Positions 34,456 to 63,038 are shown, counted from the first letter of the stretch. The stretch is 64,000 bases of DNA from Methylomarinum vadi (GCF_000733935.1 NZ_JPON01000001.1:3482623-3546622); one strand, 5' to 3'. Made by a program: numbers and translations. The notes: generated by a model not told the origin, from the letters alone.

Positions 34456-35106
34456 ATGAACGATAGTCTTGTGACAATATTGGGAAGTTCGTATTTTGAA
34501 CCAATTAGTGCATTGCTTGAAAAGCTGGAGAAACACGAGAGCAATATCTCTAACCAAGTTCAATCTGGCTATTACGAAAAAGGGTTTGCTGCATCGATCT
34601 GTATTCTGAGTGTGGTCTGCCTGGAGTCATACGTAATGAGAGTTAGGTATATTAATTCTGCCAACCAAGATCATATTGATAGAACGCCTGTTGTTAGTTA
34701 CTTAAAGTCACTATATCCAGATTTTCCGTTTGAAAACGAATTACTGGAATTACATATATTGAGAGACCTCCTGGCCCACAATCACCTATGGGAAATATCA
34801 TATTCATTTAACGAAGATGATGAAATGGAAATTAGTGAGGTAGAAAAAAGAAGTTCTGGTGATAAAAAATATCGGCAACGTGTAGATACGGAAAATCACG
34901 TAACAAAAACTCTAGGCCTGAACGTGAACCCAATTAAGGTAGGGGCTTCAGACGTTAAGTTGGTCCTTCAGACGATGTGGAAAATTCTACTTTTTCTTGA
35001 GAGCAAGAATAGAAATCAATGCTACGTATCTCATCTGCGCGCGGTATATAAGGGCACACTAAGGCAGTTTGGTGAAATCATTGGTATGCCAGAAACATGC
35101 ACATAA
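34456..35106 (+). CDS. Hypothetical protein (216 aa), AT-rich, partner of the preceding gene; its TAA stop coincides with the first bases of the IS91-family element
   Basis: ORF with an SD; no recognisable motif. Confidence 0.4.
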   Translation: MNDSLVTILGSSYFEPISALLEKLEKHESNISNQVQSGYYEKGFAASICILSVVCLESYVMRVRYINSANQDHIDRTPVVSYLKSLYPDFPFENELLELHILRDLLAHNHLWEISYSFNEDDEMEISEVEKRSSGDKKYRQRVDTENHVTKTLGLNVNPIKVGASDVKLVLQTMWKILLFLESKNRNQCYVSHLRAVYKGTLRQFGEIIGMPETCT

Positions 35107-35415
35107 CGAATAAGGTTAGATTGTAATCGCGGAGCGAGCCACAATCTGAACCGTTTGTTGGACAAGCCCGGTATTCGGAGGGAGCGTTATATAAGAAAAT
35201 AGCTTTTCGAAGGATTGGGGGATGTGTTGGCCCATTTCAAGCGTTGACGTCGATAAACGGGCTGAAATGGGCGTGATGCTGATCATCACACCCGGAATTT
35301 CGGATTTTAGCGGCATTTTGCCCTGAATTCAGACCGAACGAAAGCCTCGGTGCTAAAATGCCCGATGATCGGTTTGGGTCAGTGAGAAATGCCGCTTACA
35401 TAACCGGTTTTGCCT

Positions 35416-36513
35416 CTACGCTTTGGTCGAATTCAATGCCATGACAGCCGAAGAACCGAGAATGCGCGTTTTGATAATCTGCAGGGTTCCACCACAACAT
35501 GGGCATTGGAGTTTCGGGCGGGGCCTGAGCCAAGCGATAGCACGATTGGGATTGACGCCGAGCAAGACTTGCAGCAGACGAATCAGCCGTTTGCTGTTGG
35601 GGTGCAAAAAGCCGAAGTTGCGAGTCCGCCTAAAGCCTTTGGGCAGAACATGGCGGAGCATCAGCCACAGAAACTTCACGCCGGGTAGTGTTCGAGTCTG
35701 CCACTTTTTGGTTTTGCTGTCCTGGTAACGGAAGGTTACTTGGCCATCTCGGCAGGCAATAATGTCCTTTTCCTGGATAACGCCCTTATAGAGATAACGT
35801 CCCAGATAAACCAAGGCTTTATCGCCGCGTCCGACCGACTTGACGTCAACGACCCATTGTTGCGGATAGTAGTCAGGCAATGTCAAACCGGCCTGCGAGA
35901 TCGCTTCAAGCAATTTGGCCCGAAACACTTTGGCCACTGCCTTGTGATTGAACAAATAGCCTTTCCGGCCCTTTTTACCCTGTTTGGTGCGCCACAGTCG
36001 TTTATCAGGATCGATGGCGGCCGCCGGCATCACCAAGTGTACATGCGGATGGTAATCCAATCGGCGGGAATGGGTATGCAACACAGCAATAGCACCGGCA
36101 TTGCCCTGAAGCTGTTGATCGTTGCGGGTGAAGGTGTTGACGGTATCCCAACTACAGCGGATCAGCAGATCATACAACGTACGTTGCTGTTGCCAGGCCA
36201 ACGGCCTGAGTTCTTTGGGCAAAGTAAACGTCAGCAAAAAATATTCGGCCGGCACCTGCTTCTGCAACTGCCTTTCCAGCCATTGTTGCGATTCGTGCGA
36301 CTGGCAATGCGGGCAGCTGCGATGGCCGCAGGAATGCGGCACCAAGCGTTGCCGATCGCAATCATCGCATTGCGCCAACATCACAGGGCCTTGCGACGTG
36401 CGGCAGTGTTTCATCGCGGCCAGCGCCTGACGCTGACTGGGTGACAAGCGACCCTGGTAAGCGACCAGAAACTCGGCTTCGAAGGTTTGGATGATGGCGG
36501 AAAGCAAGATCAT
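35416..36513 (-). CDS. IS91-family HUH/Y2 transposase
   Basis: HUH motif [18 protein letters not shown]; Y2 motif YLGRYLYKG; N-terminal Cys/His zinc-binding cluster. Confidence 0.85.
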
Positions 36514-37417
36514 TTGACCGCCCCCCAGTCGATGTCGAAGCCATTCATTAAGGCATTAATCAACTGGCCGGTATTTTGATTCGTGCCGTCGGTCAGGTGA
36601 GTATAGCGGGCAGTGGTGAGGATACTGTGGTGACCGAGGATTTTCTGCACTTCCAGTAGATCGACGCCCGCTTCAATCAAATGTGTGGCATAGCTATGCC
36701 GCAGACAGTGCGGGGTAATCTTTTTTTTAAACCGCAGTCTTGCGCGACTTGGCGCAGAGCCTTTTGCACGCCACCGCGATCCAAAGGGCTCTGCGCGCGC
36801 TGCGCGCCCTTCAAACCGCCATGGCGATTGGGAAACAACATGACCGGATGCCGGTGAACTTGCCAGAAGCGGCGTAGCAAATCCAGGGTGGCAGCCGGCA
36901 ACGGCACCAGTCTATCCTTATTGCCCTTGGCATCTCGGATATGCACGCGTTGGCGACCGGCATCGATATCCCCAACCTCAAGACGCAATCCCTCGCCGAG
37001 GCGCAAACCTAGACTGTAGAGCGTGAAAAAGAACACCCGGTAACTGAGAATACGCGTGGACTGGAAGATACACCGCGCCTCGTCGACAGTGACGATATCC
37101 GGCAAACGTTGCGCCTTCGGCGGCTTGACCAACTGCGGCGCGACCCAAGGCTTGCGCAGTACATGGGTGTAATAAAACTTGAGACCGTACAGGTCCAACT
37201 TGACCGCACTCCAAGAATGCGACTCCAGCAAATCGGTGAAATAATCGGTCAGTTGCTGTTCGGTCAACGCATTGATGTCTTCGTTGAAATACTGGCCGAT
37301 ACGTCGAATCGCACGGGCATAGGCCTCGATCGTCTTGGGCTGCAACCCTTTAAGTTTGAGGTGTTTCAGATGGCTTTGATAGTTTTGCTTGAAATGGGGT
37401 TCGAATGATGTTGTCAT
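36510..37417 (-). CDS. Tyrosine recombinase (phage-integrase family) of the IS91-family element. Full length requires a -1 frameshift in an A8 run at ~36721-36728. The zero-frame product (36677..37417) stops 14 codons after the run.
   Basis: The -1 frame after the A-run reads [46 protein letters not shown], which are integrase box II and the catalytic Tyr. Its TGA overlaps the transposase ATG (ATGA). Confidence 0.65.
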
Positions 37418-37621
37418 TGTCGCGTAACCTCATGATTCGTCATGGAATAATCCCTCTTAAAAGAGGGCGTGAGATTACATTTTATAAATTACCGGCTACT
37501 GCCGCTTTTCTCCGCGTTAGCGGCTTCGTCCAACACGGCATTCCACCCGACCAAAAACCGCTACGCGGTTTTCCTCGGGTGAGCTTGGCGTTAGCTTTGA
37601 AATTACGAATTTGAGGCGTCA

Positions 37622-37963
37622 ATGAGCAGAAAAAAACACCGAAGCACACGCGCTGCCCGTAAAGGCCCAATTATGTCCGCGGAAATGAGTGCAAAAATCT
37701 TCGAGGCATTAAATGATCGTCGCTATGTCGCACGAACCATAAAAGGCATAGCAACATCAACACATTTGAGAGAGCCGCAGGTGGTGGAAGTGTTGCGTAA
37801 CGATCAGAATTTGCGCGGTGCGGTGAAGATTTACCCGCGTAAGTCGAAAAATGGCAAATTACTAATTACCACCAAAGAAAAATTTGAAAAAACCGCCACA
37901 ACACTCGATAGGTTTATCGATTATTTCGCTACGAAAAAGGAGAGTTTTGATGACTTCTCCTGA
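37622..37963 (+). CDS. Hypothetical small basic protein (possible winged-helix)
   Basis: ORF with a GAGG SD; AT-rich. Confidence 0.3.
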   Translation: MSRKKHRSTRAARKGPIMSAEMSAKIFEALNDRRYVARTIKGIATSTHLREPQVVEVLRNDQNLRGAVKIYPRKSKNGKLLITTKEKFEKTATTLDRFIDYFATKKESFDDFS

Positions 37964-38309
37964 TGGGGTTTCAATTACGCAACTAATTAGCTCGAATCAA
38001 CTTCTGATTTTTATCGCCTTTTTTGGTGGAGTAGTTCTTTTTGGAATGAAAATGGCCGAGCATTTTTCTCGGAAGCCAGAAAATAAATTCTCGAACGGTC
38101 GATATTTCTTGTACTTTGTCTTTTTGCTTGTCTCACTTCCAATACTTGGCTCGGCAGTTGTAATAATATACTTAGCAAACGGCGACAAAATAAGTCCTGT
38201 ATTGGCATTTCAAATAGGATTGACGTCACCTGCGATAGTCCAAAGCTTAATAATTGCCGCAGCAAACAAATTCAAAGAAGGTGGTCTAGAAACCACAAGT
38301 GGACAGTGA
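37950..38309 (+). CDS. Hypothetical small 3-TM membrane protein (start at MTSPDGV with an AAGGAG SD; overlaps the upstream gene by 14 nt)
   Basis: Hydrophobic helices; translational coupling. Confidence 0.3.
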   Translation: MTSPDGVSITQLISSNQLLIFIAFFGGVVLFGMKMAEHFSRKPENKFSNGRYFLYFVFLLVSLPILGSAVVIIYLANGDKISPVLAFQIGLTSPAIVQSLIIAAANKFKEGGLETTSGQ

Positions 38310-38385
38310 AAGCTAACAATGCCGTAAACTCGGGCGCATTTTTCGTTCGCTGCGCTCACTACAAACGCACTGGTTACGGCTGGCG

Positions 38386-40098: not shown

Positions 40099-40165
40099 GG
40101 ACGTTGTTCTTTATGCGTATTTACTATGAAAGTCGCGACGCGGGCCTTAATCCCCCTCGTCCTCT

Positions 40166-41910
40166 GGAGGGCGTCGTAAAACCCCAATTTCTTTGATTTA
40201 CCACTGGAAACCGGCCGTATTTTCCACGGTCGGCGAAGTTGGCAAGTCAGTAGTGTAACTCAGCCAAATGTCGACCATTCGGTCAAACGAGCTCATAAAC
40301 CGGCTAAGCCAATGATATAAAGCACGAAAAAGAGCTGCCACTAAGGCGCGGCTCAGATTGTAAGCCATGGCGTGCAAGGCGAACTCTACTTTGACACCCG
40401 CCAAACCTTTACGGCGAAAGCGATTCAAGCCTTGGCGACCGCGTAGCTGACTGAAGACTGGCTCCACCATGGCCTGCCGCTGCCGATAGCGTTGCCGAGG
40501 TTCGGGCTGGGCCATTTTCAGGCGCAGGGCTTCTTTTTGGGTATCGCTGTCATAGCGTTTGAGGGTGCGACCGCTTTCGCTACGCGTGCATTGGGATTTC
40601 AGCGGACAGTCTGAACAGGCATCGCAGGCGTAGACGGTATAAGCATGGCCACTTTTACCGCCTTTGCAGGTGTGACGGCGAGTCAAGCGTTGTTGCCCCG
40701 GACAGCGATAAGTGTCGTCGTCGGCCTGATAAATAAAGCGGCTTTTGGGGATTTGTTTGTTGGATTGTTTGTTCCAATCGTCTCCTTCACTTTGGCCTTC
40801 CGGACAAAGCAATTCGATGTTGTGTTGCTCAGCAGTATCCAAGACGCCATTGCTGAAATAGCCAGCATCGAACAGAGCTGTTTCGACGCCTCCCAGGGCT
40901 TGGGCGCGATCCAGTAAGCCCGGCACCACCTCGGTTTCACTGGAAGGATGAACGTCGCAAGCCACGATCACTCGATTGTCGTTCGCCAATACCGACGGTT
41001 TATAACTGCTGCGAAAGTCTTTGGAGTTCTTTTGCGGCTGTAATACCGCCTCCGGCTCGTTGCTTTGTACTTGGGTCTTGGCCGGATCTTTGCCTTTGGC
41101 GGCTTGTTTTTGCTGGCGAGACTTTAGCTCGGCTTGGGCTTGTTCCAGACCGTTCATACGCTTAGTCGCAGCCGCATCGTTTGGGTTGGCTTGCGCGGCT
41201 TCCTTCGCTTGCGCCAAGGCTTGGTTGAGCGCTTCTTCCTTCATCAATCGAAACCGGGAGGACATGGCTTCGATCACGGTACCGTCACCCGCCAACGCCG
41301 TCGTGCCGGAGCCGGTGACTTTCAAAGTACGACGCGTTAGTTGATCGAAAAATTCGGTCGTCAATGAGTCGGCATGCTGATGGACGAAACGGCCAATGAC
41401 GGAGTGATCCGGCATGATACCGCCACTTAGCCACCAACACCCCACATCGGCTCGAGCTAAACGCTCCAAGTCGCGCAGGCTGCTGATGCCTTGTAACAGG
41501 CCGTAGAGAATGATCCCCACCATCGCACATGGCGCATACGGCGGACGCCCGCCGGGCCGATAACGGGCTTCGAACTCGGCGAAGGATAGCGATTGCAAGA
41601 AGGGGCGCAATTTCAACGGGATGGTTAAGCCGGCGTGCTCCAGATGTTCGCCGAGCGGTTTACCGTTGATCGATAAGCCGCGCGGGTCGGGCGCTTCAAA
41701 ACGGGCCATCGGTTCGCTTGAGATCGATTGAGCGATCAACTCAGGTAACGGTTCAACCTCGCATTCATCGAATAGCGAATATTGCTTGGCGCTATACAAT
41801 GTCTTGACGGGTCTAATGTTCGCTTCGGCTGCCATTGATCTATTTCTAATAGGTTTGGACAGGGTTATTTTACCGTATGTAGCTGGTTGGGGGGCTTTTA
41901 CGACAGCCTC
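40166..41910 (-). mobile_element. IS1182-family insertion sequence, copy 2, 1745 bp, 4-bp TSD CTCT, inverted relative to copy 1
   Basis: Same TIRs as copy 1; ctct on both flanks; inserted between the STAS gene and the ABC ATPase gene. Confidence 0.8.
40198..41835 (-). CDS. IS1182-family DDE transposase (copy 2). It has scattered substitutions relative to copy 1, so the copies are not identical.
   Basis: 545-aa protein collinear with 7216..8853; differences include MARFEAPD vs MAHFEAPD and PCAMVG vs PRAMVG. Confidence 0.85.
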   Translation of the reverse strand: MAAEANIRPVKTLYSAKQYSLFDECEVEPLPELIAQSISSEPMARFEAPDPRGLSINGKPLGEHLEHAGLTIPLKLRPFLQSLSFAEFEARYRPGGRPPYAPCAMVGIILYGLLQGISSLRDLERLARADVGCWWLSGGIMPDHSVIGRFVHQHADSLTTEFFDQLTRRTLKVTGSGTTALAGDGTVIEAMSSRFRLMKEEALNQALAQAKEAAQANPNDAAATKRMNGLEQAQAELKSRQQKQAAKGKDPAKTQVQSNEPEAVLQPQKNSKDFRSSYKPSVLANDNRVIVACDVHPSSETEVVPGLLDRAQALGGVETALFDAGYFSNGVLDTAEQHNIELLCPEGQSEGDDWNKQSNKQIPKSRFIYQADDDTYRCPGQQRLTRRHTCKGGKSGHAYTVYACDACSDCPLKSQCTRSESGRTLKRYDSDTQKEALRLKMAQPEPRQRYRQRQAMVEPVFSQLRGRQGLNRFRRKGLAGVKVEFALHAMAYNLSRALVAALFRALYHWLSRFMSSFDRMVDIWLSYTTDLPTSPTVENTAGFQW

Positions 41911-41956
41911 CTCTGGGAGAGGGCCGGGGAGAGGGAACGATCAAGCGCCATGATCG

Positions 41957-43045
41957 TTAGGCCTTAAGCAGCAATTGTAATCGGTTTTTGCCGTCGATCC
42001 ACCGATATTCGATGCTTTCGGTCAAATTCTTAATAATCATCAAGCCCAGGTCATCGCTTATACTCGGACTTTCGAGCGGATTGCCTTCCTCTCCGTTACT
42101 TTCGCAGATGATTTCGAGGCGTTCGTTCTTTTCCGAATAGGCGATGGTCATATCCAGAACGATCGTGCGCAGATAAGGGTTATAGATTTGCAGTAATTCC
42201 TCGACCAATAGCAGCAAATTGTATCGGGTTTTCTTGGGCAGGATCTGCTTTTCACAAAAGGCCTCGATTTCCGCATTCATCGCATACAAATCGTAATCTG
42301 GAGAATTGATGCGGCAGGTGTAGCTGCGCACCCGGTTGATGAAAGCCCGGGTCTTTTCCTTGAGCGGATTCTCGAAAAGCTGTTCCGGGGGCCCCTCTTC
42401 GTAGATGATCCCCTCGTCCATATACAATATTCGGTTCGATACATCGCGGGCGAAATCCATTTCATGGGTGACGATCGCCATCGTCATGCCTTCCTTGGCG
42501 AGGCGGCGGATGACCGAGAGCACCTCCCTGACCATGGTCGGGTCCAGCGCCGACGTCGGCTCGTCGAACAGAATGATTTCCGGGTCCATGGCGAGACAAC
42601 GAGCAATGGCCACGCGTTGTTGCTGGCCGCCGGAAAGTTCATCCGGATAACTGCCGGCCTTTTCCGCCAGCCCCACCAAACGCAACAATTCAAGCGCCTT
42701 GATCTTGGCGTTTTGCTCGCCGATGCCTTTAAGCCTGATCGGTGCGATGGTGAGGTTTTCCAGCACCGACAGGTGGGAAAACAGATTGAATGATTGAAAT
42801 ACCATGTTCATCTTTTGGCGTATTTCGGCGACATTGGTCTTCTTATCCAGAATATCCACGCCGTTTATTCGGATAGAGCCGCCGCTCGGAAGTTCGAGCA
42901 GGTTCAGGCAGCGCAGCAGGGTGCTCTTGCCGGTGCCGGAAGGTCCGATGATCGAGACGACTTCCCCGGTTTTTATTTCGGTGGTAATGTCCTTCAGCAC
43001 GACCAGGTCGCCGAATTTCTTGGACAGATGGTCGATTTTGATCAT
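41957..43045 (-). CDS. Polar amino-acid ABC transporter ATP-binding protein (GlnQ-like) with a ~110-aa C-terminal RsbW-like (degenerate HATPase_c_2) extension
   Basis: Walker A GPSGTGKST, signature LSGGQQQR, Walker B ILFDEPTSALD. The C-terminal segment (LLLLVEELLQIY...RLEIICESNGEEGNP...DLGLMIIKNLTESIEYR) aligns with the RsbW N- and G-boxes. Confidence 0.75.
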   Translation of the reverse strand: MIKIDHLSKKFGDLVVLKDITTEIKTGEVVSIIGPSGTGKSTLLRCLNLLELPSGGSIRINGVDILDKKTNVAEIRQKMNMVFQSFNLFSHLSVLENLTIAPIRLKGIGEQNAKIKALELLRLVGLAEKAGSYPDELSGGQQQRVAIARCLAMDPEIILFDEPTSALDPTMVREVLSVIRRLAKEGMTMAIVTHEMDFARDVSNRILYMDEGIIYEEGPPEQLFENPLKEKTRAFINRVRSYTCRINSPDYDLYAMNAEIEAFCEKQILPKKTRYNLLLLVEELLQIYNPYLRTIVLDMTIAYSEKNERLEIICESNGEEGNPLESPSISDDLGLMIIKNLTESIEYRWIDGKNRLQLLLKA

Positions 43046-46026
43046 GACTGGGCTCCTTTACGCCGTTTGTATTTCGGATCGGTAATTCGTTCCAGGTATT
43101 CCAATGACAGCATCAGCACCCAGGCGATCACGAAGTACAGAATCGCCACCATGATCAACGGAAAAAAGGCGTCGAAGGTGCGGGCGCGGATGATATCGCT
43201 GGCCTTGGTCAAATCCTGCACCGCGATGTAGCCGACGATAGACGTCATCTTGACCAAGGAAATGAATTCGCCCTTGTACACCGGCAAGATGCGCTGCACG
43301 GCCTGCGGCAGCACGATGAAGATAAAGGTTTGTAGCTTCGTGAAGCCCATCGCGATACCGGCTTCGGTCTGGCCCTTGTCGATGCTTTCGATGCCGGTGC
43401 GGAACATTTCCGAAACATAGGCGCCGAAATTCAGGCCGAAGGCGATGATGGCGACCAGCACCGGACTGATATTGACCGACGCGAACACGACATAGAAGAT
43501 CAGCATCAACAGCACCAGTACCGGCATGCCGCGCAGGAGGTTGATATAGATTTTGGCGGGCAAGTTCAAAACCGGGCGTTTCGACATCCTCATGAAACAG
43601 ACCAAGGCGCCGGTCAGCGTCCCGAACAGCGTCGCAAAGATCGAAATGACGACGGTGGTCTTCAGTCCGTCCCAGATCAATAAGTAGCGTTGCTCATGGA
43701 TGATGTTGCTGTAAAAACTGTTGGCGATGCGGGTAAGGAAGGATGAGGATGCCGTCGTGCTATCGGATGGGCTGTCGTAGGCCGCCAGATTTTTTTTCAA
43801 CGCGAAGACGCTGGCCTTCAATTCGAAGTAAGGCTCGGAAAAATCGATCCGGGTCTTGCGTTCGTCGGTGATCATCAGCGTGCTGTCGATCATGTCGATC
43901 TTGCCGGCTGAGACGGCGGCGATCAGGTTGCCGAATTCCATGTCGGCGTATTTGACTTTTTTACCGATATAGGCTCCGAAGCGCTCGGCCAATTCGATAT
44001 CGAAACCGATCAGTTCGTTGTTTTGAATGACGGCGAAAGGCAGTCCCTTATCGCTGACGATGCCGACTATCAGCACGCCATTGCTACCCGCATTGGCGAT
44101 CTCGGGCATTATGCTGTTACCTTGTTCGATCCAGCGATCCACGACATCATTCAACACGCCGTTCGCTTGAATTTGTTTCAGGAAGGCGTTGAATTGTTCG
44201 CGCAAGACGTCGTTGTTTTGGTTGAAACCCATGCCGACCGGAATGGACAGCACCGGCTCGCCCAATAAGGCTAATTCCTGGTCTTCGCGCAAGATCTGAA
44301 TCAAGTTCGCCCGGTTGTAAATGCCGGCATCGATCTTACCGGATCGGACCGCCAATACCAGGTCGGACGGCGATTTGTACTGCAGAATCTGGGCGTTCGG
44401 ATAATGTTCGGTCGCATAGGTATCATAGACCGACCCCAGCAGCACACCGATACGCTTGTCGCTTAAATCGGCGACCGTCATGAGTTTGTCGGTGACGACG
44501 TTTTTCTTCAGCGCGAAAACCCGCGTGCCCATCTTGAAGTAGGGATTGGAGAAGTCGATCTGTTTCTTTCTTTCCTCGGTGACATAGATAGAGCTGATAA
44601 TGATGTCGGCCTTGCTGGTGGACACCGCGGCGATCAAGCTGCCGAAATCCATATTATCGAATTTGATTTTTTTGCCGAGATAGGCCGCGAATCGCTCCGA
44701 CAATTCGATATCGAAGCCCACCCATTGGTTGTCTCGAAGCGCGACAAAAGGCATCCCCGCGTCACTGACGCCGACGACCAGAACGCCGTTGTTTTGGCTG
44801 TTTGCGATGACGGGCAATTGGATATCGCGTCTTTCCATCCAACGCCGCAGCATGTCGGCGTAGATGCCGTTTTGCTTGATTTGCGCCAGAAATTCATTGA
44901 AACGATTCCTGAGCTGTTGATTATCTTTCTTGAAACCGGCGGCTACATCGAAGTCGAATAGAGAGCCGCCCAACAGCGCGAAACTATCGTCATCACGCAT
45001 GATTTCGCGTAGCGGTTCGGCATCGTACAAAGCGACGTCTACCTTGCCGGTCTTGACCGCCAACGCGACATCCGCCGGCGACTTGTATTGCAGAATCGTC
45101 GCATCGGGGTAGTGTTTCGTCGCATAGGTGTCGTGCGCCGAACCCAGCAGCACGCCGATGCGCTTGTTTTCCAGGTCCGCGACCGAGGAAAGTTTTAGCG
45201 TTTGCATGATCAGTTTTTCCGGGTCGCCGGCGGAGCCGGTCGAGGGCGCTCGTTTAACCAGCATCACCTGCGCATTGGCGTAATACGGCTGGGTAAAATC
45301 GACGAATTGACTGCGTTCCTTGGTCGCCGTCATGCCGGTGACGATGATATCGACCTTGCCGGATTGCAGGGCGGGGATCAGCGCCATGAATTTCATGTTG
45401 TAAAATTCGACCGGCCGGTGAAGTTTGGCGCCGATAATTCGGGCGAACTCGCCGTCATGACCGCTGACCCTGCCGTTTTTGTCGACAAAACTGAACGGTT
45501 CCCGTGTCGCGCTGACCCCTATTTTGAGCGGCGTCCCCTCACTCGGGAGGGTGATGTTCAATTCTTCATAAGGGCTTAAATCCGGTTTGAACCAACGCTT
45601 TTTCATCGAGGCCAGGGTGCCGTCATTTTTCAGTTCGGTGATGATCCGGTTCAATGTCGCGAGCAACTCGTCATTGCCTTTTCTGACAGCGATCGCGGTA
45701 TTTTCGTGGTCGAGTGGTTCGGACAGCACGGTGAATTCCGGGTTCTTTTTCGACACCTGAAGCGCGGCGGGAAATGCCGTGACGATGGCATCCAATTGGC
45801 CGGATTTCAGCGCGGCGACGGCGTCCATGATATCGTCGAAACTTTTGACCTGAGCCTGTGGAAACCTGGCGAGCGTGATGGCTTCACCGGTCGACCCGGT
45901 CATGACCCCGATGCTTGCCTGTTTGGCATCATCGAGACGGGTGATGACGATGTCGTTTTTTCTGCAGCCGCTGACAAACGCAACGGTTGCCAGCAAGAAC
46001 AGCAAGATGGGTATTGCCTTTTTCAT
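43042..46026 (-). CDS. Fusion of three tandem periplasmic amino-acid-binding domains (SBP_bac_3) with a C-terminal ABC permease (GlnP-like SBD-SBD-SBD-TMD), lipoprotein signal
   Basis: 994 aa with three repeated ~230-aa SBD units and a C-terminal EAA-loop permease. The N-terminus LLATVAFVSGC is a lipobox. Overlaps the ATPase gene by 4 nt. Confidence 0.8.
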   Translation of the reverse strand: MKKAIPILLFLLATVAFVSGCRKNDIVITRLDDAKQASIGVMTGSTGEAITLARFPQAQVKSFDDIMDAVAALKSGQLDAIVTAFPAALQVSKKNPEFTVLSEPLDHENTAIAVRKGNDELLATLNRIITELKNDGTLASMKKRWFKPDLSPYEELNITLPSEGTPLKIGVSATREPFSFVDKNGRVSGHDGEFARIIGAKLHRPVEFYNMKFMALIPALQSGKVDIIVTGMTATKERSQFVDFTQPYYANAQVMLVKRAPSTGSAGDPEKLIMQTLKLSSVADLENKRIGVLLGSAHDTYATKHYPDATILQYKSPADVALAVKTGKVDVALYDAEPLREIMRDDDSFALLGGSLFDFDVAAGFKKDNQQLRNRFNEFLAQIKQNGIYADMLRRWMERRDIQLPVIANSQNNGVLVVGVSDAGMPFVALRDNQWVGFDIELSERFAAYLGKKIKFDNMDFGSLIAAVSTSKADIIISSIYVTEERKKQIDFSNPYFKMGTRVFALKKNVVTDKLMTVADLSDKRIGVLLGSVYDTYATEHYPNAQILQYKSPSDLVLAVRSGKIDAGIYNRANLIQILREDQELALLGEPVLSIPVGMGFNQNNDVLREQFNAFLKQIQANGVLNDVVDRWIEQGNSIMPEIANAGSNGVLIVGIVSDKGLPFAVIQNNELIGFDIELAERFGAYIGKKVKYADMEFGNLIAAVSAGKIDMIDSTLMITDERKTRIDFSEPYFELKASVFALKKNLAAYDSPSDSTTASSSFLTRIANSFYSNIIHEQRYLLIWDGLKTTVVISIFATLFGTLTGALVCFMRMSKRPVLNLPAKIYINLLRGMPVLVLLMLIFYVVFASVNISPVLVAIIAFGLNFGAYVSEMFRTGIESIDKGQTEAGIAMGFTKLQTFIFIVLPQAVQRILPVYKGEFISLVKMTSIVGYIAVQDLTKASDIIRARTFDAFFPLIMVAILYFVIAWVLMLSLEYLERITDPKYKRRKGAQS

Positions 46027-50581: not shown

Positions 50582-50959
50582 TCAGCCTCTCGTTTGCAAA
50601 TATTTGTCGACAACGCCTTTTACCTTCGCAATGGTATAGGGCTTAGCGATAAAGCCTTTGCCGCCTAGTGCGACCGTGGTTTTGACATTGTCTATAGTGG
50701 CATTCGCACTGACGATGACGACGAATTGGTCCGGAATTTCCACTAAAATTTCCTTCATGACCTCGAAGCCGTTCATATCGGGCATTTCGACGTCCAGAAA
50801 AATAATGTCATAAAGCCCCAAATTGATTTGACGAATGGCATCATGGCCGCCGCCTGCTTCAAAGGTAATAATTCGCCGGCCCAGCCCCATTAACACGGAT
50901 CTGAGCAGTTTCCGCGCGGCCATATTGTCATCCACGATCAATGCCGAAATTGAATTCAT
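50582..50959 (-). CDS. Single-domain response regulator (CheY-like receiver)
   Basis: Acidic pocket plus phospho-acceptor Asp (IIFLDVEMPDMNG). Confidence 0.8.
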   Translation of the reverse strand: MNSISALIVDDNMAARKLLRSVLMGLGRRIITFEAGGGHDAIRQINLGLYDIIFLDVEMPDMNGFEVMKEILVEIPDQFVVIVSANATIDNVKTTVALGGKGFIAKPYTIAKVKGVVDKYLQTRG

Positions 50960-53003
50960 TTGTTATCTTTGTTGAATATTCTTGTAAGTCGGTTAATTTC
51001 GAGGCTATTTGTTGGAAATTTTCTTGTTCGAGATCGGATTCGATCGAGGCGGCGATTTTCCCCAAATCGGGGTGGCCATATCCGCCGGCGATTCCTTTCA
51101 ATTGATGGGACTGGGATTTTAGCTCTTGCCAGTTTTGGCCTCGATATTCGCGTTCCATGGTTGCGATTGTAGCGGGGAGGGCGCGTAAAAATTCCTGCAA
51201 AATTGCCTGAAAATCCGGGTCATTAAGATTGATCTCATTATTTATCGATGGCGGCGTTTTCAAGAAACGGTTGAGCGTGGTGAAAAATGCATCCAGTTCA
51301 ATCGGTTTGCTCAAAAAATCGTCGAAGCCAGCGTCGTGGCATTGCTGTTTGATGGTTACGGTCGCATTTGCGGTGAGAGCGATAATAGCGCCACCATAGC
51401 CCACGTTGCGCAGTAATTGGGTTGCTTCCAGCCCTCCCATGCCGGGCATCTGCATATCCATCAGAATCAGGTCGTAATTATTTTGCAGGGCTTTTTCCAC
51501 GGCATTATTGCCATTATCGACAATTTCGACGGAAATCCCGGCCTTAGTCAGGAACAGGGAAATCAATTGTTGATTGTTGAGGTTATCTTCTACCAGCAAG
51601 ACACTTCCCATCAGTCTTTCCGAACTGGTCCAGGGGTTGGTCTCCTTTTCCTGTTTGGGTAATTGCTCGAGATTGTATATCAAGGCATCATCCAACGCAT
51701 GAGACTTCAGGGTCAGCGTAAACTGACTGCCTTTTCCCGGAACGCTGTGCATGCTAATCGTTCCGCCCAACATTTCCGCCAGTTGTTTGGAGATGGCGAG
51801 TCCCAAGCCCGAACCGCCGTAATGACGGGTTGTCGAAGTATCCGCTTGCACGAATTTTTGAAAAAGTTTGGCCTGTTCTTGCAAGGGTATGCCAATACCA
51901 TTGTCGGTCACGATAAATTGGGTTTGGAGATCATCAATGGAATGGCGGATGGTGATCGTGATTTCGCCACGCTCGCTGAATTTGACGGCGTTGTAGCATA
52001 AATTCAATAATATTTGTTTTAGCCGCGTCGGGTCTGTTGTCAGTGTTTGCGGTAATGGAAAGCGGTAATAAATTTTAAAGTCCAATCCCTTTTCCTTGGC
52101 TTTTCCATGAATAATGGCGCCGATTTCATTCAATAAATGAAACGGGTCGGTGGCAAGCATTTCCAGTTCGAGCTTTCCGGCTTCGATTTTGGAGATGTCC
52201 AGGATATCTTTGATTATTCCAGAAAGGTGGTTCGAAGACTCCAGAATATCCTTAACGGCTTTATCTTGTTCTGTGTCGGACAGCTGGCCGTAACGAATAA
52301 GGTCGGCATAACCCAGAATAGCGGTCAGTGGTGTCCTGATTTCATGGCTGATATTGGCCAGAAATTGGCTCTTGGCCTGGTTGGCTTGCTCCGCGTCATT
52401 TCGGGCCTTTTCCAGTTCGGCCGTTCGTTGTTCGATAATTTCTTCCAGCTGTTTGTTATGCGCGCGTATGCAGCGATACAGCTCGAAATTTTCCAACATA
52501 TTAGTGGTGCTGAGGAGAATGACGTTAAGCAGGTTCAATGCATCGCCTTGTTCGATAGCGTGAAAAGGGTCGACGACTGCGACGAACATGCCCCTAATAC
52601 GAGAACGTGTCGATAACGGGTGCAGCAGGAGCGTTTTGTGATTTTGGCTGGATTCGAAGACAGCCTTTGTCTGGCTCAGGGCCCAGGCAAAAATGCCTTG
52701 TTCGATAAGATGATCGACTTCGTCCTGGATAAGAGCGGCAAGGCTGGATGGTTCGCAATAGCTTAAATTAAAACTGTGGTCTTGCTCGTCGATCAAGAAA
52801 AATGCCATGGCTTCGAACGTAAACAGTTCATTGAGTTGTTCACTGCATTCCCGCAAAATATGGTCGATGCCCATTTTCTGCTTGTCTGTTGGCTCGGCAG
52901 GGGGGGCATTGTAAGCCGATGGTGTCTTCATTCGATCTCTTAGTGTTTCAATGATCGGTTTTAGCGGTGATAATGCCGACGGCGTCTTGAAATTGTTGCT
53001 CAA
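50928..53003 (-). CDS. Hybrid sensor histidine kinase/response regulator with C-terminal Hpt domain
   Basis: H-box HEIRTPL, HATPase G-boxes, receiver [13 protein letters not shown], Hpt [11 protein letters not shown]. Confidence 0.85.
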
Positions 53004-56602: not shown

Positions 56603-57988
56603 TTAACTTTCCCGGCGCCAAGTGGTTTTACCTCCAGGCGCATCCTCAAGCACGATGCCTTGAGCTTTTAGCTGGTCGCGGATTTGGTCTGCCTGGCTCC
56701 AGTCCTTGTTTTGCTTGGCTGTGGCGCGTTCCTCGATCAGGGACTTGATTTCGTCTTCCGTCAAGCCGGCTTCATGGCTGCCGCCTTGCAGGAATGTATC
56801 GGGGGCCTCCTGCAAAATCCCCAGGATGGAACCTAGCGACTTTAAGGTGAAAGCCAGGTTTCGGACTCTTTCCGGATCGTCTTTCGATTTGTTCAGTTCG
56901 CGGGCGAGGTCGAACAACACGGCTATCGCTTCCGGCGTGTTGAAGTCGTCGTTCATGGCTTGCTCGAAATCGGCCTTATAGGCCTTGTCGATTTTGCCGT
57001 CGGCGCTTTCTATGCCGCGCAATGCCGTATACAGGCGGGTCAATGCCGCATTGGCCTCGTCCAGGTGTTCATCGGAATAGTTCAGCGGGCTGCGATAATG
57101 GCTGGTGAGAATAAAGAAACGGATGATTTCCGGACGGTACTGTTTCAATACCTCGCGAACAGTAAAAAAATTGCCCAACGATTTGGACATTTTTTCCTCG
57201 TTGACCCGCACGAAACCGTTATGCATCCACAAGTTGACGAATTTCTCGCCGGTCGCTCCCTCGGATTGGGCGATTTCGTTTTCATGGTGCGGAAACTGCA
57301 GATCCATGCCGCCGCCGTGAATGTCGAAATGGTTGCCCAGGCAGCAGGTCGACATCGCGGAACATTCGATATGCCAACCGGGCCGGCCGTTGCCCCACGG
57401 CGACTCCCAATATGGTTCGCCGGGCTTGGCCATTTTCCACAAAGCGAAGTCCAATGGGTCGCGTTTGGCCGAATCCACCTCGACGCGTTCGCCGGCCTGC
57501 AATTCCGCGATATTCTTGCCGGACAGACGGCCGTAGTTGTCGAATTTGGCGACCGAATAAAACACGTCGCCGTTGCTGCCGACATAGGCGAGGTCGTTAG
57601 CGATCAGTTTTTCGATCATGGCGATGATGCTGTCCATCGATTGCGTGGCTTTCGGCTCGATGTCCGGCGGCAATACCGACAGTGCGCGTTCGTCCTCATG
57701 CATCGCATCGATGAAACGTTCGGTTAATCGGCTGAAATCCTCGCCATTCTCGTTGGCCCGTTGGATGATTTTATCGTCGATGTCGGTGACATTGCGAACA
57801 TAGGTCAGGTCGTAACCTAAATATCTGAAATAGCGCGCCACCGTGTCGAAAACGACCATGACGCGGGCGTGGCCGATATGGCAATAATCGTAAACCGTCA
57901 TGCCGCAAACATACATACCCACTTTGCCGGGCACTCTGGGAGTAAAGGTTTCTTTGCTTCGAGTTAAGGTGTTATAAATTTTCAGCAT
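56603..57988 (-). CDS. cysS: Cysteine--tRNA ligase
   Basis: HIGH (HIGHARV) and KMSKS (KMSKSLGN) motifs; zinc-binding Cys residues; 461 aa. Confidence 0.95.
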
Positions 57989-58116: not shown

Positions 58117-58698
58117 ATGACCAGGATCCTTTTTTCCCTGATGCTACTTATCTTACCAACTCTTTCATTCGCTACGGAAAATAAAATGTCGGATAGTCAA
58201 ACAAAAGTAAAACTAACCACCACGATGGGTGACATTGTCATCGAGTTGAATGCCGAAAAAGCGCCGATTTCCTCGGAAAACTTTTTGGCCTATGTTCGCG
58301 ACGGATTTTACGACGGCACCATATTCCATCGCGTCATTCCCGGTTTCATGGCGCAAGGCGGCGGCTTCGATACCGATTTCCAACAGAAGGAAACCCGTGC
58401 CGCCATTAAAAATGAAGCGGACAACGGCTTGAAAAACGAGCGCGGGACCATTGCCATGGCGCGTACGCCCGACCCGGATTCGGCCACCGCCCAGTTCTTC
58501 ATCAATTACAAAGACAACAGCTTTTTGAACTACACCAGCCCAACGCCAAACGGCTGGGGCTACGCGGTATTCGGTGAAGTGGTCGAAGGTATGGATGTGG
58601 TCGATGAAATGGCCGGCGTGCCGACCGGAAACAATGGCATGCACCAAGATGTGCCGAAAACCAATATCGTGATCGAAAAGGCCGTCGTGCTGGAATAA
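58117..58698 (+). CDS. ppiA: Periplasmic cyclophilin-type peptidyl-prolyl isomerase
   Basis: Signal peptide plus cyclophilin motifs [13 protein letters not shown] and SQFFI-type. Confidence 0.9.
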
Positions 58699-58851: not shown

Positions 58852-59595
58852 ATGATAGCGACGCCCTTGCAACAGGAAATCATCTTCATCTCCGATTTAC
58901 ATATCTCGCTGGAAAAAAAGGAAATCACCCGCCGCTTCCTCTCGTTTCTCGAGCACCGAGCCGGTCGGGCCAAGGCGCTTTACATTCTCGGCGATCTGTT
59001 CGACGCCTGGATTGGCGACGATGACAACACACCGCCGAACAAAGCGATTAAACGGCGGCTGCAACACTTGAGCGCCAACGGAACGCGGGTTTTTTTACAG
59101 CTGGGAAACCGGGATTTTCTCTTGGGCCAGCGCTTTGCCGAGGAAACCGGGGTCGTTCTGTTGGAGGATTATCATGTCATCGATTTATTCGGCAGCAAGA
59201 CCTTGCTAACTCATGGCGACTTGTTATGCACGGATGATATCGCCTATCAGGCATTTCGGGCCAAGTCGCGCACCCCCGAATGGATCGGCAATGTATTGTC
59301 CAAGCCGTTGTTGCTGAGATTGCTGGCGGCGCGCTGGTATCGCTTCCGCAGCCATTTTCACAAGCGCAAGAAATCGCAGGAGATCATGGACGTCAATCAA
59401 CAGACGGTCGTCGAAGCGATGCGGCATCACGGCTGCAATCGCTTGATTCACGGCCATACCCACCGGCCAGCGGTGCATGAATTTCTGATCGATGGCCAGC
59501 GGGCGCAACGCTTCGTCCTGGCCGATTGGAGGAAAAAGTCGGCCGAAATCCTCTGCTGGACCCCCGACGGGTTCACTCGCGAAAAGCTGGTTTAA
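58852..59595 (+). CDS. lpxH: UDP-2,3-diacylglucosamine diphosphatase LpxH
   Basis: Metallophosphoesterase motifs FISDLHIS, GDLFDAW, GNRD, THGD; synteny cysS–ppi–lpxH. Confidence 0.85.
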   Translation: MIATPLQQEIIFISDLHISLEKKEITRRFLSFLEHRAGRAKALYILGDLFDAWIGDDDNTPPNKAIKRRLQHLSANGTRVFLQLGNRDFLLGQRFAEETGVVLLEDYHVIDLFGSKTLLTHGDLLCTDDIAYQAFRAKSRTPEWIGNVLSKPLLLRLLAARWYRFRSHFHKRKKSQEIMDVNQQTVVEAMRHHGCNRLIHGHTHRPAVHEFLIDGQRAQRFVLADWRKKSAEILCWTPDGFTREKLV

Positions 59596-59951
59596 CGTTA
59601 TCCGGCGGATGAACGTGTATCATCGGGATAATTGAGTCCTAACGAATAAGGTTAGATTGTAATCGCGGAGCGAGCCACAATCTGAACCGTTTGTTGGACA
59701 AGCCCGGTATTCGGAGGGAGCGTTATATAAGAAAATAGCTTTTCGAAGGATTGGGGGATGTGTTGGCCCATTTCAAGCGTTGACGTCGATAAACGGGCTG
59801 AAATGGGCGTGATGCTGATCATCACACCCGGAATTTCGGATTTTAGCGGCATTTTGCCCTGAATTCAGACCGAACGAAAGCCTCGGTGCTAAAATGCCCG
59901 ATGATCGGTTTGGGTCAGTGAGAAATGCCGCTTACATAACCGGTTTTGCCT

Positions 59952-61049
59952 CTACGCTTTGGTCGAATTCAATGCCATGACAGCCGAAGAACCGAGAATG
60001 CGCGTTTTGATAATCTGCAGGGTTCCACCACAACATGGGCATTGGAGTTTCGGGCGGGGCCTGAGCCAAGCGATAGCACGATTGGGATTGACGCCGAGCA
60101 AGACTTGCAGCAGACGAATCAGCCGTTTGCTGTTGGGGTGCAAAAAGCCGAAGTTGCGAGTCCGCCTAAAGCCTTTGGGCAGAACATGGCGGAGCATCAG
60201 CCACAGAAACTTCACGCCGGGTAGTGTTCGAGTCTGCCACTTTTTGGTTTTGCTGTCCTGGTAACGGAAGGTTACTTGGCCATCTCGGCAGGCAATAATG
60301 TCCTTTTCCTGGATAACGCCCTTATAGAGATAACGTCCCAGATAAACCAAGGCTTTATCGCCGCGTCCGACCGACTTGACGTCAACGACCCATTGTTGCG
60401 GATAGTAGTCAGGCAATGTCAAACCGGCCTGCGAGATCGCTTCAAGCAATTTGGCCCGAAACACTTTGGCCACTGCCTTGTGATTGAACAAATAGCCTTT
60501 CCGGCCCTTTTTACCCTGTTTGGTGCGCCACAGTCGTTTATCAGGATCGATGGCGGCCGCCGGCATCACCAAGTGTACATGCGGATGGTAATCCAATCGG
60601 CGGGAATGGGTATGCAACACAGCAATAGCACCGGCATTGCCCTGAAGCTGTTGATCGTTGCGGGTGAAGGTGTTGACGGTATCCCAACTACAGCGGATCA
60701 GCAGATCATACAACGTACGTTGCTGTTGCCAGGCCAACGGCCTGAGTTCTTTGGGCAAAGTAAACGTCAGCAAAAAATATTCGGCCGGCACCTGCTTCTG
60801 CAACTGCCTTTCCAGCCATTGTTGCGATTCGTGCGACTGGCAATGCGGGCAGCTGCGATGGCCGCAGGAATGCGGCACCAAGCGTTGCCGATCGCAATCA
60901 TCGCATTGCGCCAACATCACAGGGCCTTGCGACGTGCGGCAGTGTTTCATCGCGGCCAGCGCCTGACGCTGACTGGGTGACAAGCGACCCTGGTAAGCGA
61001 CCAGAAACTCGGCTTCGAAGGTTTGGATGATGGCGGAAAGCAAGATCAT
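59952..61049 (-). CDS. IS91-family HUH/Y2 transposase (copy 2)
   Basis: Identical to 35416..36513. Confidence 0.85.
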
Positions 61050-61953
61050 TTGACCGCCCCCCAGTCGATGTCGAAGCCATTCATTAAGGCATTAATCAAC
61101 TGGCCGGTATTTTGATTCGTGCCGTCGGTCAGGTGAGTATAGCGGGCAGTGGTGAGGATACTGTGGTGACCGAGGATTTTCTGCACTTCCAGTAGATCGA
61201 CGCCCGCTTCAATCAAATGTGTGGCATAGCTATGCCGCAGACAGTGCGGGGTAATCTTTTTTTTAAACCGCAGTCTTGCGCGACTTGGCGCAGAGCCTTT
61301 TGCACGCCACCGCGATCCAAAGGGCTCTGCGCGCGCTGCGCGCCCTTCAAACCGCCATGGCGATTGGGAAACAACATGACCGGATGCCGGTGAACTTGCC
61401 AGAAGCGGCGTAGCAAATCCAGGGTGGCAGCCGGCAACGGCACCAGTCTATCCTTATTGCCCTTGGCATCTCGGATATGCACGCGTTGGCGACCGGCATC
61501 GATATCCCCAACCTCAAGACGCAATCCCTCGCCGAGGCGCAAACCTAGACTGTAGAGCGTGAAAAAGAACACCCGGTAACTGAGAATACGCGTGGACTGG
61601 AAGATACACCGCGCCTCGTCGACAGTGACGATATCCGGCAAACGTTGCGCCTTCGGCGGCTTGACCAACTGCGGCGCGACCCAAGGCTTGCGCAGTACAT
61701 GGGTGTAATAAAACTTGAGACCGTACAGGTCCAACTTGACCGCACTCCAAGAATGCGACTCCAGCAAATCGGTGAAATAATCGGTCAGTTGCTGTTCGGT
61801 CAACGCATTGATGTCTTCGTTGAAATACTGGCCGATACGTCGAATCGCACGGGCATAGGCCTCGATCGTCTTGGGCTGCAACCCTTTAAGTTTGAGGTGT
61901 TTCAGATGGCTTTGATAGTTTTGCTTGAAATGGGGTTCGAATGATGTTGTCAT
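61046..61953 (-). CDS. Tyrosine recombinase of IS91-family element copy 2 (same A8 frameshift site at ~61257-61264)
   Basis: Identical to copy 1. Confidence 0.65.
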
Positions 61954-62069
61954 TGTCGCGTAACCTCATGATTCGTCATGGAATAATCCCTCTTAAAAGA
62001 GGGCGTGAGATTACATTTTATAAATTACCGGCTACTGCCGCTTTTCTCCGCGTTAGCGGCTTCGTCCAA

Positions 62070-63038
62070 CTATTCGTTCTCGTCCTCGTCGGATACCTTG
62101 ATCACGATATTGACGCGGCGGTTTTTTTGCCGGCCTTGTTCGCTGGCGTTGTCGGCCACCGGTTTGGTATCGGCATAGGTGACCGCTCGCATGCGCGCGG
62201 CGTCGATTTGCTGCGAGGCCAGAAAATGCAGCACGCTGGTGGCCCTGGCCGCCCCCAGTTCCCAATTGGAGGGAAATTGGGCCGTCTTTATCGGACGGTT
62301 ATCGGTATGCCCCTCTATATAAATCAATCCCTTAGCTTGTTTCAGCAGCGGAGTCAATTTGCTCAAGACGGCGCGGCCCGATTCGGTCAGGGCTGCTTCC
62401 GATGATTGGTAGAGAATATTGTCTTGTATTTCCAGTTGGGCGTAACCCTGAGTGACGGTCATGTTGATGCTGTTGTTCAGCCCTAACTGTTCCAGCTGTT
62501 GTTGCAATTGCTGTTGGCTTGCTTGTTCAGGCGGGGGCTCTGTCGGTTGCATTTGTTCGACGGATTCCGTTACTTCCTGACTCGGTAGCGCCCGTTCCTC
62601 GGTGACTGCGGGTTCTTCTACCGGTTCGACAACGGATGGCGCTACCTCTATGGCTGCGTTTTCTGCCGGCTCGACGGGAATCGGTGCAACGGGTTCGATT
62701 TCGGCGGTGGAATCTTCGGTTTCCGGCGCAGCCGTTTCGGACTCGGGCGCGGCTGGTTCGACTGGCGCTTGCTCGGGCGTTGTTTCCCTTTCGGCCTTTG
62801 CGGAGGCGGCCGCCTCGGGAGGGGCGGGGGCAGTCACGGTCGCAAGGGCGTCGCGTGCCTGACTCGGGACCGGCTCGAAACTGCTCAGGGCAACCAGCGT
62901 GACCACCAGCATCACGACCAAGACGAAGACATCGATATAGGTCAGCAACCAATTCGGTGGATGGCGTCTGTCGCTCAGGCTAAGCAATTCGTCGATGCTC
63001 TGCGATGATTCGAGGCGGGAAAAGGATGGCCGGGGCAT
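62070..63038 (-). CDS. MotB/OmpA-family peptidoglycan-anchoring protein with a long acidic Pro/Ala/Glu-rich linker
   Basis: N-terminal TM; C-terminal OmpA-like IEGHTDNRPI...NWELGAARA; its stop codon abuts the IS91 boundary. Confidence 0.75.
   Translation of the reverse strand: MPRPSFSRLESSQSIDELLSLSDRRHPPNWLLTYIDVFVLVVMLVVTLVALSSFEPVPSQARDALATVTAPAPPEAAASAKAERETTPEQAPVEPAAPESETAAPETEDSTAEIEPVAPIPVEPAENAAIEVAPSVVEPVEEPAVTEERALPSQEVTESVEQMQPTEPPPEQASQQQLQQQLEQLGLNNSINMTVTQGYAQLEIQDNILYQSSEAALTESGRAVLSKLTPLLKQAKGLIYIEGHTDNRPIKTAQFPSNWELGAARATSVLHFLASQQIDAARMRAVTYADTKPVADNASEQGRQKNRRVNIVIKVSDEDENE

Follow-up and report, generated by a model that had tools for sequence, protein, structure and literature searches.

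A conserved run of eight A's in the integrase gene of an IS91-family element with attC-like ends is a probable recoding site

We consider an insertion sequence of the IS91 family that is present twice in the window, the name given here to the whole stretch of 64,000 nucleotides of Methylomarinum vadi DNA that was analysed (GCF_000733935.1 NZ_JPON01000001.1:3482623-3546622). Upstream of its transposase gene, tnpA, the element carries an integrase-like gene, int, whose reading frame breaks at a run of eight A's (A8): the break is conserved among relatives, and is probably bridged by slippage during expression.

A repeat search of the window yields an exact direct repeat of 2,431 base pairs (bp), 35104-37534 = 59640-62070, with 0 mismatches and 0 gaps: the start-to-start offset is 24,536, and the identity stops sharply at either side. 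A perfect repeat of this length cannot have arisen by chance. An initial annotation of the stretch had reported two identical elements in direct orientation, 24,536 bp apart and recently transposed. Identity, orientation and offset stand, as does recent transposition, the copies being base-for-base identical, but the length, given there as 2430 bp, is actually 2,431. The flanks of the two copies are unrelated to each other except for GTTA, and there is no target-site duplication. The mobile unit proper has 2,427 bp, GTTGGAC...CCTTATTC, and the last 4 nucleotides (nt) of the repeat are the shared core, or target. Within each copy the order on the minus strand is a 117-nt leader, int, A8, the -1-frame continuation of int, and tnpA:

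35104-37534, minus strand: copy 1, a conserved unit of 2,427 bp (35108-37534) and the 4-nt GTTA core (35104-35107)
59640-62070, minus strand: copy 2, base for base the same as copy 1
37528-37534 (copy 2: 62064-62070), minus strand: 5' terminus GTTGGAC, the reverse complement of the subterminal GTCCAAC at 35157-35163
37510-37527 (copy 2: 62046-62063), minus strand: 5' subterminal short hairpin GAAGCCGC-TAA-CGCGGAG, kept in all loci compared
37417 to 36677 (copy 2: 61213-61953), minus strand: zero-frame open reading frame (ORF) of int, 246 amino acids (aa), with Pfam Phage_int_SAM_4 and the first part of Phage_integrase
36728 to 36721 (copy 2: 61264 to 61257), minus strand: putative A8 slip site, within ggtttAAAAAAAAgatt; zero-frame codons TTA-AAA-AAA-AGA
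36510-36722 (copy 2: 61046-61258), minus strand: -1-frame segment of int, 70 codons and a stop, LGHHS...ARYTH, the remainder of the Phage_integrase domain
36513 to 35416 (copy 2: 59952-61049), minus strand: tnpA, 365 aa, IS91-family HUH/Y2 transposase
35108-35163 (copy 2: 59644-59699), minus strand: 3' attC-like region, with R'' GTCCAAC at 35163-35157, stem arms at 35148-35139 and 35126-35118, and the end CCTTATTC at 35115-35108
35104-35107 (copy 2: 59640-59643), minus strand: GTTA core, adjoining the conserved end; TAAC on the plus strand

The assignment of tnpA to the IS91-family HUH/Y2 transposases, already made in the initial annotation, is borne out by Pfam matches to Zn_Tnp_IS91 PF14319 (2.8e-26) and Y2_Tnp PF04986 (6.5e-43), and by a score of 375.6 bits, for a cutoff of 125, against the NCBIfam model 'IS91 family transposase' NF033538. 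Inspection of the sequence locates the catalytic motifs HPHVHLV at residues 155-161 and YLGRY (YxxxY) at residues 236-240. The ATG of tnpA shares the letters ATGA with the -1-frame stop of int, an overlap noted before and found again here, which is kept in 48 of the 49 lineages compared below. A scan of the element for promoters and terminators gives sites no more numerous than in shuffled sequences. Each repeat appears to be an active member of an IS91-family subgroup that carries int upstream of tnpA. IS91-family members with an upstream integrase-like ORF are catalogued in ISfinder, for example ISShvi3, and share with the present element the same order, int then tnpA.

Under standard decoding, int would yield a protein of 246 aa, and a -1 change of frame at the A-run would yield a full recombinase, 302 aa in total, including the ...ARYTH... 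box: our translation agrees with the initial annotation both on the early zero-frame stop and on the -1 slip on A8 that leads to the Tyr of RYTH. The slip heptamer, A_AAA_AAA, is in phase with the zero frame (codons NTA-AAA-AAA), and falls between the beta-hairpin Lys (K164/K167) and His237/Arg240. The 246-aa product holds the SAM-like N-terminal domain and, in the first half of the catalytic domain, Arg140 and Lys164/167; it is without His237, Arg240, His263/264 and Tyr272. Since the catalytic HxxR is encoded between the run and the zero-frame stop, with no separately initiated ORF there, only a change of frame puts it into a protein.

The protein closest to the 246-aa product in the databases is a 'site-specific integrase' of Methylomarinum vadi, 99% identical; an exact look-up of the 246-aa sequence itself gave no record. 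When the 302-aa sequence is compared to protein clusters, 39 of the best 120 are exactly 246 aa long (80-88% identical over the N-terminal 77%) and the others are mostly of about 302 aa, so that the lengths are bimodal. These 246-aa proteins all end at the same place, and their last 14 residues differ among them.

Relatives of the element were retrieved as DNA irrespective of frame, from 46 genome loci and 80 metagenome loci. The state of the run was tallied at the 100 sites in which both flanking motifs are found:

A8 followed by G, needing -1: 87 of 100 sites
A8 followed by C, needing -1: 2 of 100 sites
A10, needing -1: 1 of 100 sites
A9, in frame: 4 of 100 sites, 3 of the 4 fetched because they are in frame
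A7, needing +1: 2 of 100 sites (loci L058 and L070)
A9T, needing +1: 2 of 100 sites (loci L021/L022, from a nanopore metagenome-assembled genome, or MAG)
A8, in frame via other indels: 2 of 100 sites

An A-run that requires a -1 change is thus present at the same codon in 90 of the 100 sites, and six more loci outside this tally also have A8, including that of the isolate Aromatoleum toluclasticum ATCC 700605. Among the hosts are Methylococcales, several groups of betaproteobacteria (Propionivibrio, Aromatoleum, Burkholderiales, Nitrosomonadales), a Geobacteraceae MAG and Zetaproteobacteria/Mariprofundaceae. The codon that precedes the run is always NTA (ATA 26, CTA 17, TTA 5, GTA 1), nearby wobble positions are variable, and the share of AAA among Lys codons elsewhere in these genes is only 33%. 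In distant in-frame relatives, the first and third Lys of the KKK at the run are variable (HKT, HKA, TKS): since these two residues are not kept there, the run is selected at the nucleotide level. The two A9T sites, in MAG CAVSVP01, lie in near-identical copies (1 mismatch) and look as if the G after the run had been lost, which makes them either nanopore homopolymer artefacts or a defective element mobilised in trans.

Selection on the -1 frame was measured on 49 lineages less than 97% identical in nucleotides, with Int proteins 69-97% identical and proportions of synonymous differences (pS) of 0.53-0.59, near saturation. Upstream of the run, the ratio of nonsynonymous to synonymous rates (dN/dS) is 0.115; downstream of it, in the -1 frame, this ratio is 0.155. 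In its other two frames, the downstream segment has ratios of nonsynonymous to synonymous proportions (pN/pS) of 1.7-1.8. The -1 ORF is whole over all 70 codons in 72 of the 82 A8 loci. From the run to the zero-frame stop there are 15 codons, in which the three codon positions of the -1 frame have entropies of 0.16, 0.09 and 1.04 bits; the 16-residue -1-frame peptide that follows the run is identical in 33 of the 49 lineages; the zero-frame tails differ in 47 of them.

Homologues that encode the integrase in a single frame without an A-run, which the initial annotation had proposed as evidence to the contrary, do exist, but they leave the case for recoding standing: they are either distant or single lineages nested among A8 elements, and show from where the trait arose and that recoding can be lost. 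The distant ones, in Salinivibrio, Photobacterium and an Escherichia coli IncC plasmid, have Int proteins 52-55% identical to ours, and their codons at the site are ATT-CAC-AAG-ACC, ATT-CAT-AAA-GCC and CTC-ACG-AAA-TCT. A search of plasmids with the DNA of the whole element gave short weak matches only, and these relatives came from a protein-mode search. Nested in the A8 clade are lineages in frame via A9 (L047/48, L049, L050 and L133), one that is in frame through the run in another register (L134), and one in which the run is eroded to GTA-AAG-AAG-CAC (L135), whose protein cluster has 191 members. In a neighbour-joining tree, built with no bootstrap, A8 is ancestral to a large clade and the in-frame forms are scattered single lineages, a placement that points to independent escapes from A8.

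Two of the A9 loci have neighbours of their own kind. In L047, a second int-tnpA pair (654-2690, minus strand), with a 280-aa single-frame Int (IDKRVCLHSLRH, no A-run) and a 394-aa TnpA, adjoins the A9 element in back-to-back arrangement, and one place thus hosts several sublineages of the int-tnpA architecture. In L049 (Candidatus Accumulibacter SPMX01000105, 206-5319), two tandem-oriented elements of the family surround a BrnT/BrnA toxin-antitoxin pair, typical cassette cargo, and the downstream copy has an in-frame A9C run.

The explanation that accounts best for the whole of the data, and which we hold with good confidence, is that T-A8-G is a conserved recoding site, at which slippage at the level of expression gives the full recombinase of an element that uses attC-like sites. 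Programmed slippage, which was only called plausible in the initial annotation, is now strongly supported over decay by the 90 of 100 sites, the selection on the -1 frame, the variation confined to wobble positions and the A8 state of recently moved pairs.

Three other explanations can be weighed against this one. The first, which we judge improbable, places the change in the DNA: the run would toggle by replication slippage between A8 (off) and A9 (on), rare A9 copies moving and A8 copies being silent passengers. Homopolymers are indeed known mutation hot spots, A7 variants are also seen (L058, L070), and the in-frame A9 variants keep the run while being nested in A8 lineages at 78-87% nucleotide identity. 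However, A9 is found in just 1 of about 97 loci sampled irrespective of frame, and in every pair of copies that recently moved to distinct sites, both carry A8: 0 mismatches separate the two of the window and also L098 and L099, 6 separate L067 and L069, and 14 separate L004 and L006. Such pairs, two of them with no mismatch at all, would require a reversion after each move, and the A8 state is stable over lineages whose synonymous sites are near saturation. The in-frame pattern thus allows for an occasional A8-to-A9 mutation, and fits poorly with toggling as a routine mode of expression.

The second explanation, that the frameshift is inactivating, int being a pseudogene and the element moving by TnpA alone, is very unlikely. 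The zero frame does end early, databases do annotate a 246-aa 'site-specific integrase', and distant relatives do have an intact single-frame int; but decay would have had to strike one and the same codon in the same way at 90 of 100 sites over several bacterial classes, with purifying selection downstream in the -1 frame equal to that upstream, with the -1 ORF intact in 72 of 82 loci, and with variation after the run confined to -1-frame wobble positions. Least credible is an assembly or sequencing error hiding an A9 run and an intact gene: homopolymers are error-prone on some long-read platforms and some related loci come from nanopore MAGs, such as the odd A9T of L021/L022, but A8 is agreed upon by both window copies and by dozens of independent isolate, MAG and metagenome assemblies, and the 39 clusters of exactly 246 aa among the best 120 draw on JGI, ENA, NCBI and Logan. 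With a conserved site, a -1 frame under selection and selection on the run as well, decay and assembly error are for practical purposes excluded.

In the preferred explanation, the frame would change during expression and not in the DNA, through one extra A inserted by the RNA polymerase or through a ribosomal slip on A_AAA_AAA. The two are inseparable by sequence, the protein being the same either way. We lean slightly toward the polymerase, because all eight A's are kept though the heptamer needs seven; both may contribute. Distant in-frame relatives have Thr, Ala or Ser as the residue that A7-A8-G encodes, yet ACN never occurs there in the A8 clade.

Slippage would yield a minority of full-length Int and, by coupling, of TnpA. 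Non-shifted ribosomes stop 164 nt earlier, and only those in the -1 frame would get to ATGA; coupled translation of tnpA would therefore also depend on the slip, which probably limits the transposase in the same way as in IS1 and IS3. The zero-frame product would keep the DNA-binding N-terminal domain and Arg140 and could not cut DNA; by analogy with InsA of IS1 and OrfA of IS911, one may speculate that it acts as a regulator.

A-runs are familiar as recoding sites, in IS1, IS3 and IS630-type elements as well as in dnaX; in Thermus dnaX the recoding is a case of transcriptional slippage. With IS1, IS3/IS911, dnaX and the known slippage on runs of 8 or 9 A's, the present site shares an in-phase A-run, a short upstream product with a longer trans-frame one, a site kept in homologues and, likely, its role, that of limiting the active enzyme. 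It differs from them in that the recoded gene encodes a tyrosine recombinase beside an HUH transposase, and not a DDE transposase, in that no stimulatory structure was found, and in that the slip occurs inside one catalytic domain instead of fusing two domains or ORFs. Published measurements give an idea of what to expect: with poly-A cassettes in E. coli reporters, the frameshift product ranges from 10% for 7 As to 40% for 9 As (PMC3711429), and transcriptional slippage is documented in insertion sequences with 9A or 8A runs and on an A8 run in apoB (PMC1088944). On the basis of such A-run reporters and documented cases, we expect an efficiency of about ten to a few tens of percent.

Several points weigh against this explanation. 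A8 is at the short end of the runs with productive polymerase slippage, being the lower bound reported for it (PMC1088944). We find no conserved downstream structure and no upstream stimulator resembling a Shine-Dalgarno sequence, either in the consensus folds of six windows around the run (RNAalifold; best fold -3.8 kcal/mol) or in the minimum free energies (MFE) of the 49 lineages (mean single-sequence z = +0.12), and an Rfam search gives no match at E <= 1. Stimulators are common and not obligatory, none being established for IS1 (PMC4066793); if the slip is ribosomal, its efficiency may be low without one. Coupling of tnpA can only be proposed tentatively, because GGGG, encoding W-G, lies 8-12 nt before the ATG and could permit independent initiation. 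The in-frame A9 variants, and L135 with its lost run, imply that some lineages, at least, can do without recoding. Elements that share octapeptides with the query are over-represented among the loci sampled. Finally, both the A9 transcript and the trans-frame protein are predictions from sequence.

We now turn to the ends of the element and to its targets, which go beyond what the initial annotation saw. Over about 100 loci the ends are sharply defined: GTTGGACGAAGCCGC..GCGGAG at the 5' end, whose first bases, GTTGGAC, are invariant, and GTCCAAC-AAACGGTTCAGATTGTGG-loop-CACAATCTAACCTTATTC at the 3' end. The 3' end CCTTATTC is directly followed by GTT in 66 of 67 cases, then mostly by A, with a minority of G. 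GTCCAAC fits the attC inverse core RYYYAAC; GTTGGAC, which complements it exactly, fits the core GTTRRRY. A head-to-tail joining of the ends gives a hairpin of about 64 nt, imperfect and with one base bulged (DNA fold, -17.0 kcal/mol, z = -5.7), and the consensus of 28 junction sequences has 21 pairs, 9 of them with compensatory changes, and one bulged C. One covarying pair, C-G to U-A, joins opposite ends of the linear element; covariation of terminal repeats would also arise from protein recognition of double-stranded DNA. The head-to-tail junction itself, CCTTATTC/GTTGGACG (slashes mark junctions), occurs in four contigs, L039, L062, L093 and L116, with 5' flanks ...CTAACCTTATTC/GTTGGACG...: these are either tandem copies, circular forms, or repeat contigs assembled as circles, and would be an indirect hint of rolling-circle transposition.

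The clearest target is that of a relative in the E. coli IncC plasmid NZ_LT985243 (L131, 2366-4702), with an Int 55% identical, in a single frame and with no A-run. It is inserted exactly in the attC of aadA1, in a class 1 integron, between aadA1 and qacEdelta1-sul1, and is oriented opposite to the cassette genes; its empty site, GGCAAATAAT-GTCTAA/C-AATTCGTTCAAGCC, reads as the stop of aadA1, then R'' and L''. Many other reconstituted empty sites fold into hairpins of the type R''...R', for example ACCTAAC...GTTAGGT (L111) and GCCCAAC...GTTGGGC (L113). In 17 of 36 non-redundant 3' flanks, versus 7 of 167 control windows, the stop of a converging ORF (80 codons or more) lies at most 25 nt from the junction. 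A cruder statistic, which counts sites with at least 5 of the 7 core bases paired in the MFE fold, is non-discriminating: it picks 13 of 33 sites and, among the controls, which probably include real attC sites, 19 of 47 other GTT positions and 46 of 165 shuffled sequences. Upstream, 97 flanks have the weak consensus GTCnnSTnGAnCnnnTT/, which copy 1 fits (37535-37552, GGTCGGGTGGAATGCCGT) and copy 2 fits partly.

In the window, the rest of the target of copy 1 is the following feature:

37535-37600, minus strand: remainder of the copy-1 target, hairpin CTAAC...CACCCGA-GGAAAACCGC-GTA-GCGGTTTTT-GG-TCGGGTG.../GTTA

The reconstituted empty site of copy 1 has a fold of -17.4 kcal/mol (z = -3.1): this hairpin resembles attC and could also be a terminator. 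The site of copy 2, GTTAGGA, is an unstructured secondary one at the stop codon of a motB-like gene. No attC array turns up around copy 1 when 31.9-39.4 kb is scanned strictly for both pattern and fold, nor is there an intI gene near that copy; we therefore claim no integron in the window.

Among solved structures, Int best matches the Vibrio integron integrase VchIntIA (2A3V, E = 7e-27). The alignment is split in two, with 38 residues where IntI has 72, about 34 of the IntI-specific insert being absent. The scores of Int against IntI models, 159.4 bits for TIGR02249 (cutoff 265) and 92 for NF011946 (cutoff 435), are below both cutoffs, and the XerA, XerC and XerD models score it similarly, all under their own. 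Int is not a member of the IntI family; from its sequence, it may work like one. As the ends form an attC-like site and insertion at GTT cores is often in attC-like hairpins, the recombinase is probably the integration enzyme. The family would insert at the G/TT core of such hairpins, just after cassette stop codons, Int presumably carrying out the site-specific step at G/TT; TnpA may supply a circular, perhaps single-stranded, intermediate, the most conjectural part of this scheme. One may go further, and tentatively picture the element as a self-mobilising mimic of an integron cassette: a single-stranded circle would be peeled off, or replicated, by the HUH transposase; the joined ends of the circle would fold into an attC-like hairpin, and an IntI-like recombinase, complete only through slippage, would integrate this hairpin at the G/TT of attC sites, on the strand opposite to that used by IntI. 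We regard this larger picture as possible and somewhat doubtful.

Elements of other families that invade attC sites are known. With integron cassettes and IntI, IS1111-attC elements and group IIC-attC introns, the present family shares inverse R''/R' cores, a bulged imperfect hairpin and G/TT junctions. It differs in carrying its own recombinase and a rolling-circle transposase, and in the place of its insertion: for copy 1 and L131, which were read base by base, this is the R'' side, and the strand is the one opposite the cassette gene; the data on converging stops are consistent with this arrangement in about half of the other loci. With IS91, IS801, IS1294 and ISCR it has in common the Zn_Tnp_IS91 and Y2_Tnp domains, the HUH and YxxxY motifs, the lack of target duplication, a subterminal hairpin downstream of tnpA, and a short conserved target beside that end. 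The target of IS91 is GTTC/CTTG; the present one is GTTR and, more than a bare tetranucleotide, a structured hairpin that resembles attC, and the present element differs further from these four by an additional tyrosine recombinase gene that overlaps tnpA and by joined ends that mimic attC. Among the members that carry an integrase, ISShvi3 has been seen adjoining an attC site (PMC9229058).

We found no statement in the literature on a recoded int, or on designed attC targeting, in these integrase-carrying members. Nor did a search of full-text literature, with ISfinder and TnPedia outside its scope, return a published description of recoding or a conserved frameshift in an IS91-linked integrase, or of a cassette-like architecture, an absence that is not proof of novelty. 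Recoding at this site would add a tyrosine recombinase, partner of an HUH transposase, to the genes expressed by slippage, so far mostly DDE transposases, dnaX and phage tail genes; the many 246-aa 'site-specific integrase' entries of the databases probably stand for recoded genes, which their annotation should say. For the integrase of this subgroup, ends and targets that resemble attC offer a concrete, testable job, and the relative found in the resistance array of a class 1 integron, on an IncC plasmid, ties the family to platforms of antibiotic resistance. If the cassette mimic were true, it would couple rolling-circle transposition to single-strand site-specific recombination, in an element able to invade cassette arrays, including those of clinical class 1 integrons. 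These questions are relevant to work on recoding, insertion sequences and integrons.

Both copies abut the stop codon of a host gene, 35104-35106 and 62072-62070, as the initial annotation had it. For copy 1, the ORF is at 34456-35106 on the plus strand, and its stop, TAA, at 35104-35106, is supplied by the GTTA core: the position is explained by the habit of the family, which often inserts at attC-like sites just after stop codons. For copy 2, the ORF at 62070-63038 on the minus strand is MotB/OmpA-like and stops at 62072-62070, its TAG being kept because the element also starts with G. The cysS, ppiA and lpxH genes previously placed between the copies were found there, the second as a PpiA/B-type isomerase:

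37535-59639: segment between the copies, 22.1 kb, with an IS1182-family element, ABC-transporter genes, two-component system genes, fchA, cysS, the isomerase gene and lpxH
56603-57988: cysS
58117-58698: PpiA/B-type isomerase gene
58852-59595: lpxH

What the initial annotation remarked on deletion and amplification is sound as general reasoning. Identical direct copies around 22 kb would be a substrate for homologous recombination and, in principle, for amplification; a deletion between them would take out cysS and lpxH. A second repeat of the window is inverted, 7128-8886 with 40165-41923, over 1,759 nt that are 97% complementary, and an IS1182-family transposase is encoded at 40198-41835 (283.7 bits for a cutoff of 270). 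One IS1182 copy being inside the segment bracketed by the IS91-family elements, inversion between the IS1182 copies is also possible.

The same segment contains an ORF of 994 aa (43042-46026) in which four matched stretches of amino-acid ABC substrate-binding type are fused to a permease domain; a direct repeat of 278 nt, 43790-44067 and 44501-44778 (71%), is an internal domain duplication of this ORF. Within the gene of a hybrid histidine kinase (50928-53003), positions 52291-52303 match exactly, as TAACGAATAAGGT, the terminal 13 nt of the IS91-family element, core included, and their surroundings have no similarity to the element beyond these 13 nt. By a rough estimate of our own, made by hand, the chance expectation of this 13-mer is a few per thousand; the match is probably due to chance, and could alternatively be a potential secondary site. 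Elsewhere in the window, two neighbouring inverted-repeat pairs, 544-661 and 1483-1599 (63 nt, 89%; 44 nt, 86%), surround about 0.9 kb, possibly as the termini of a small mobile element.

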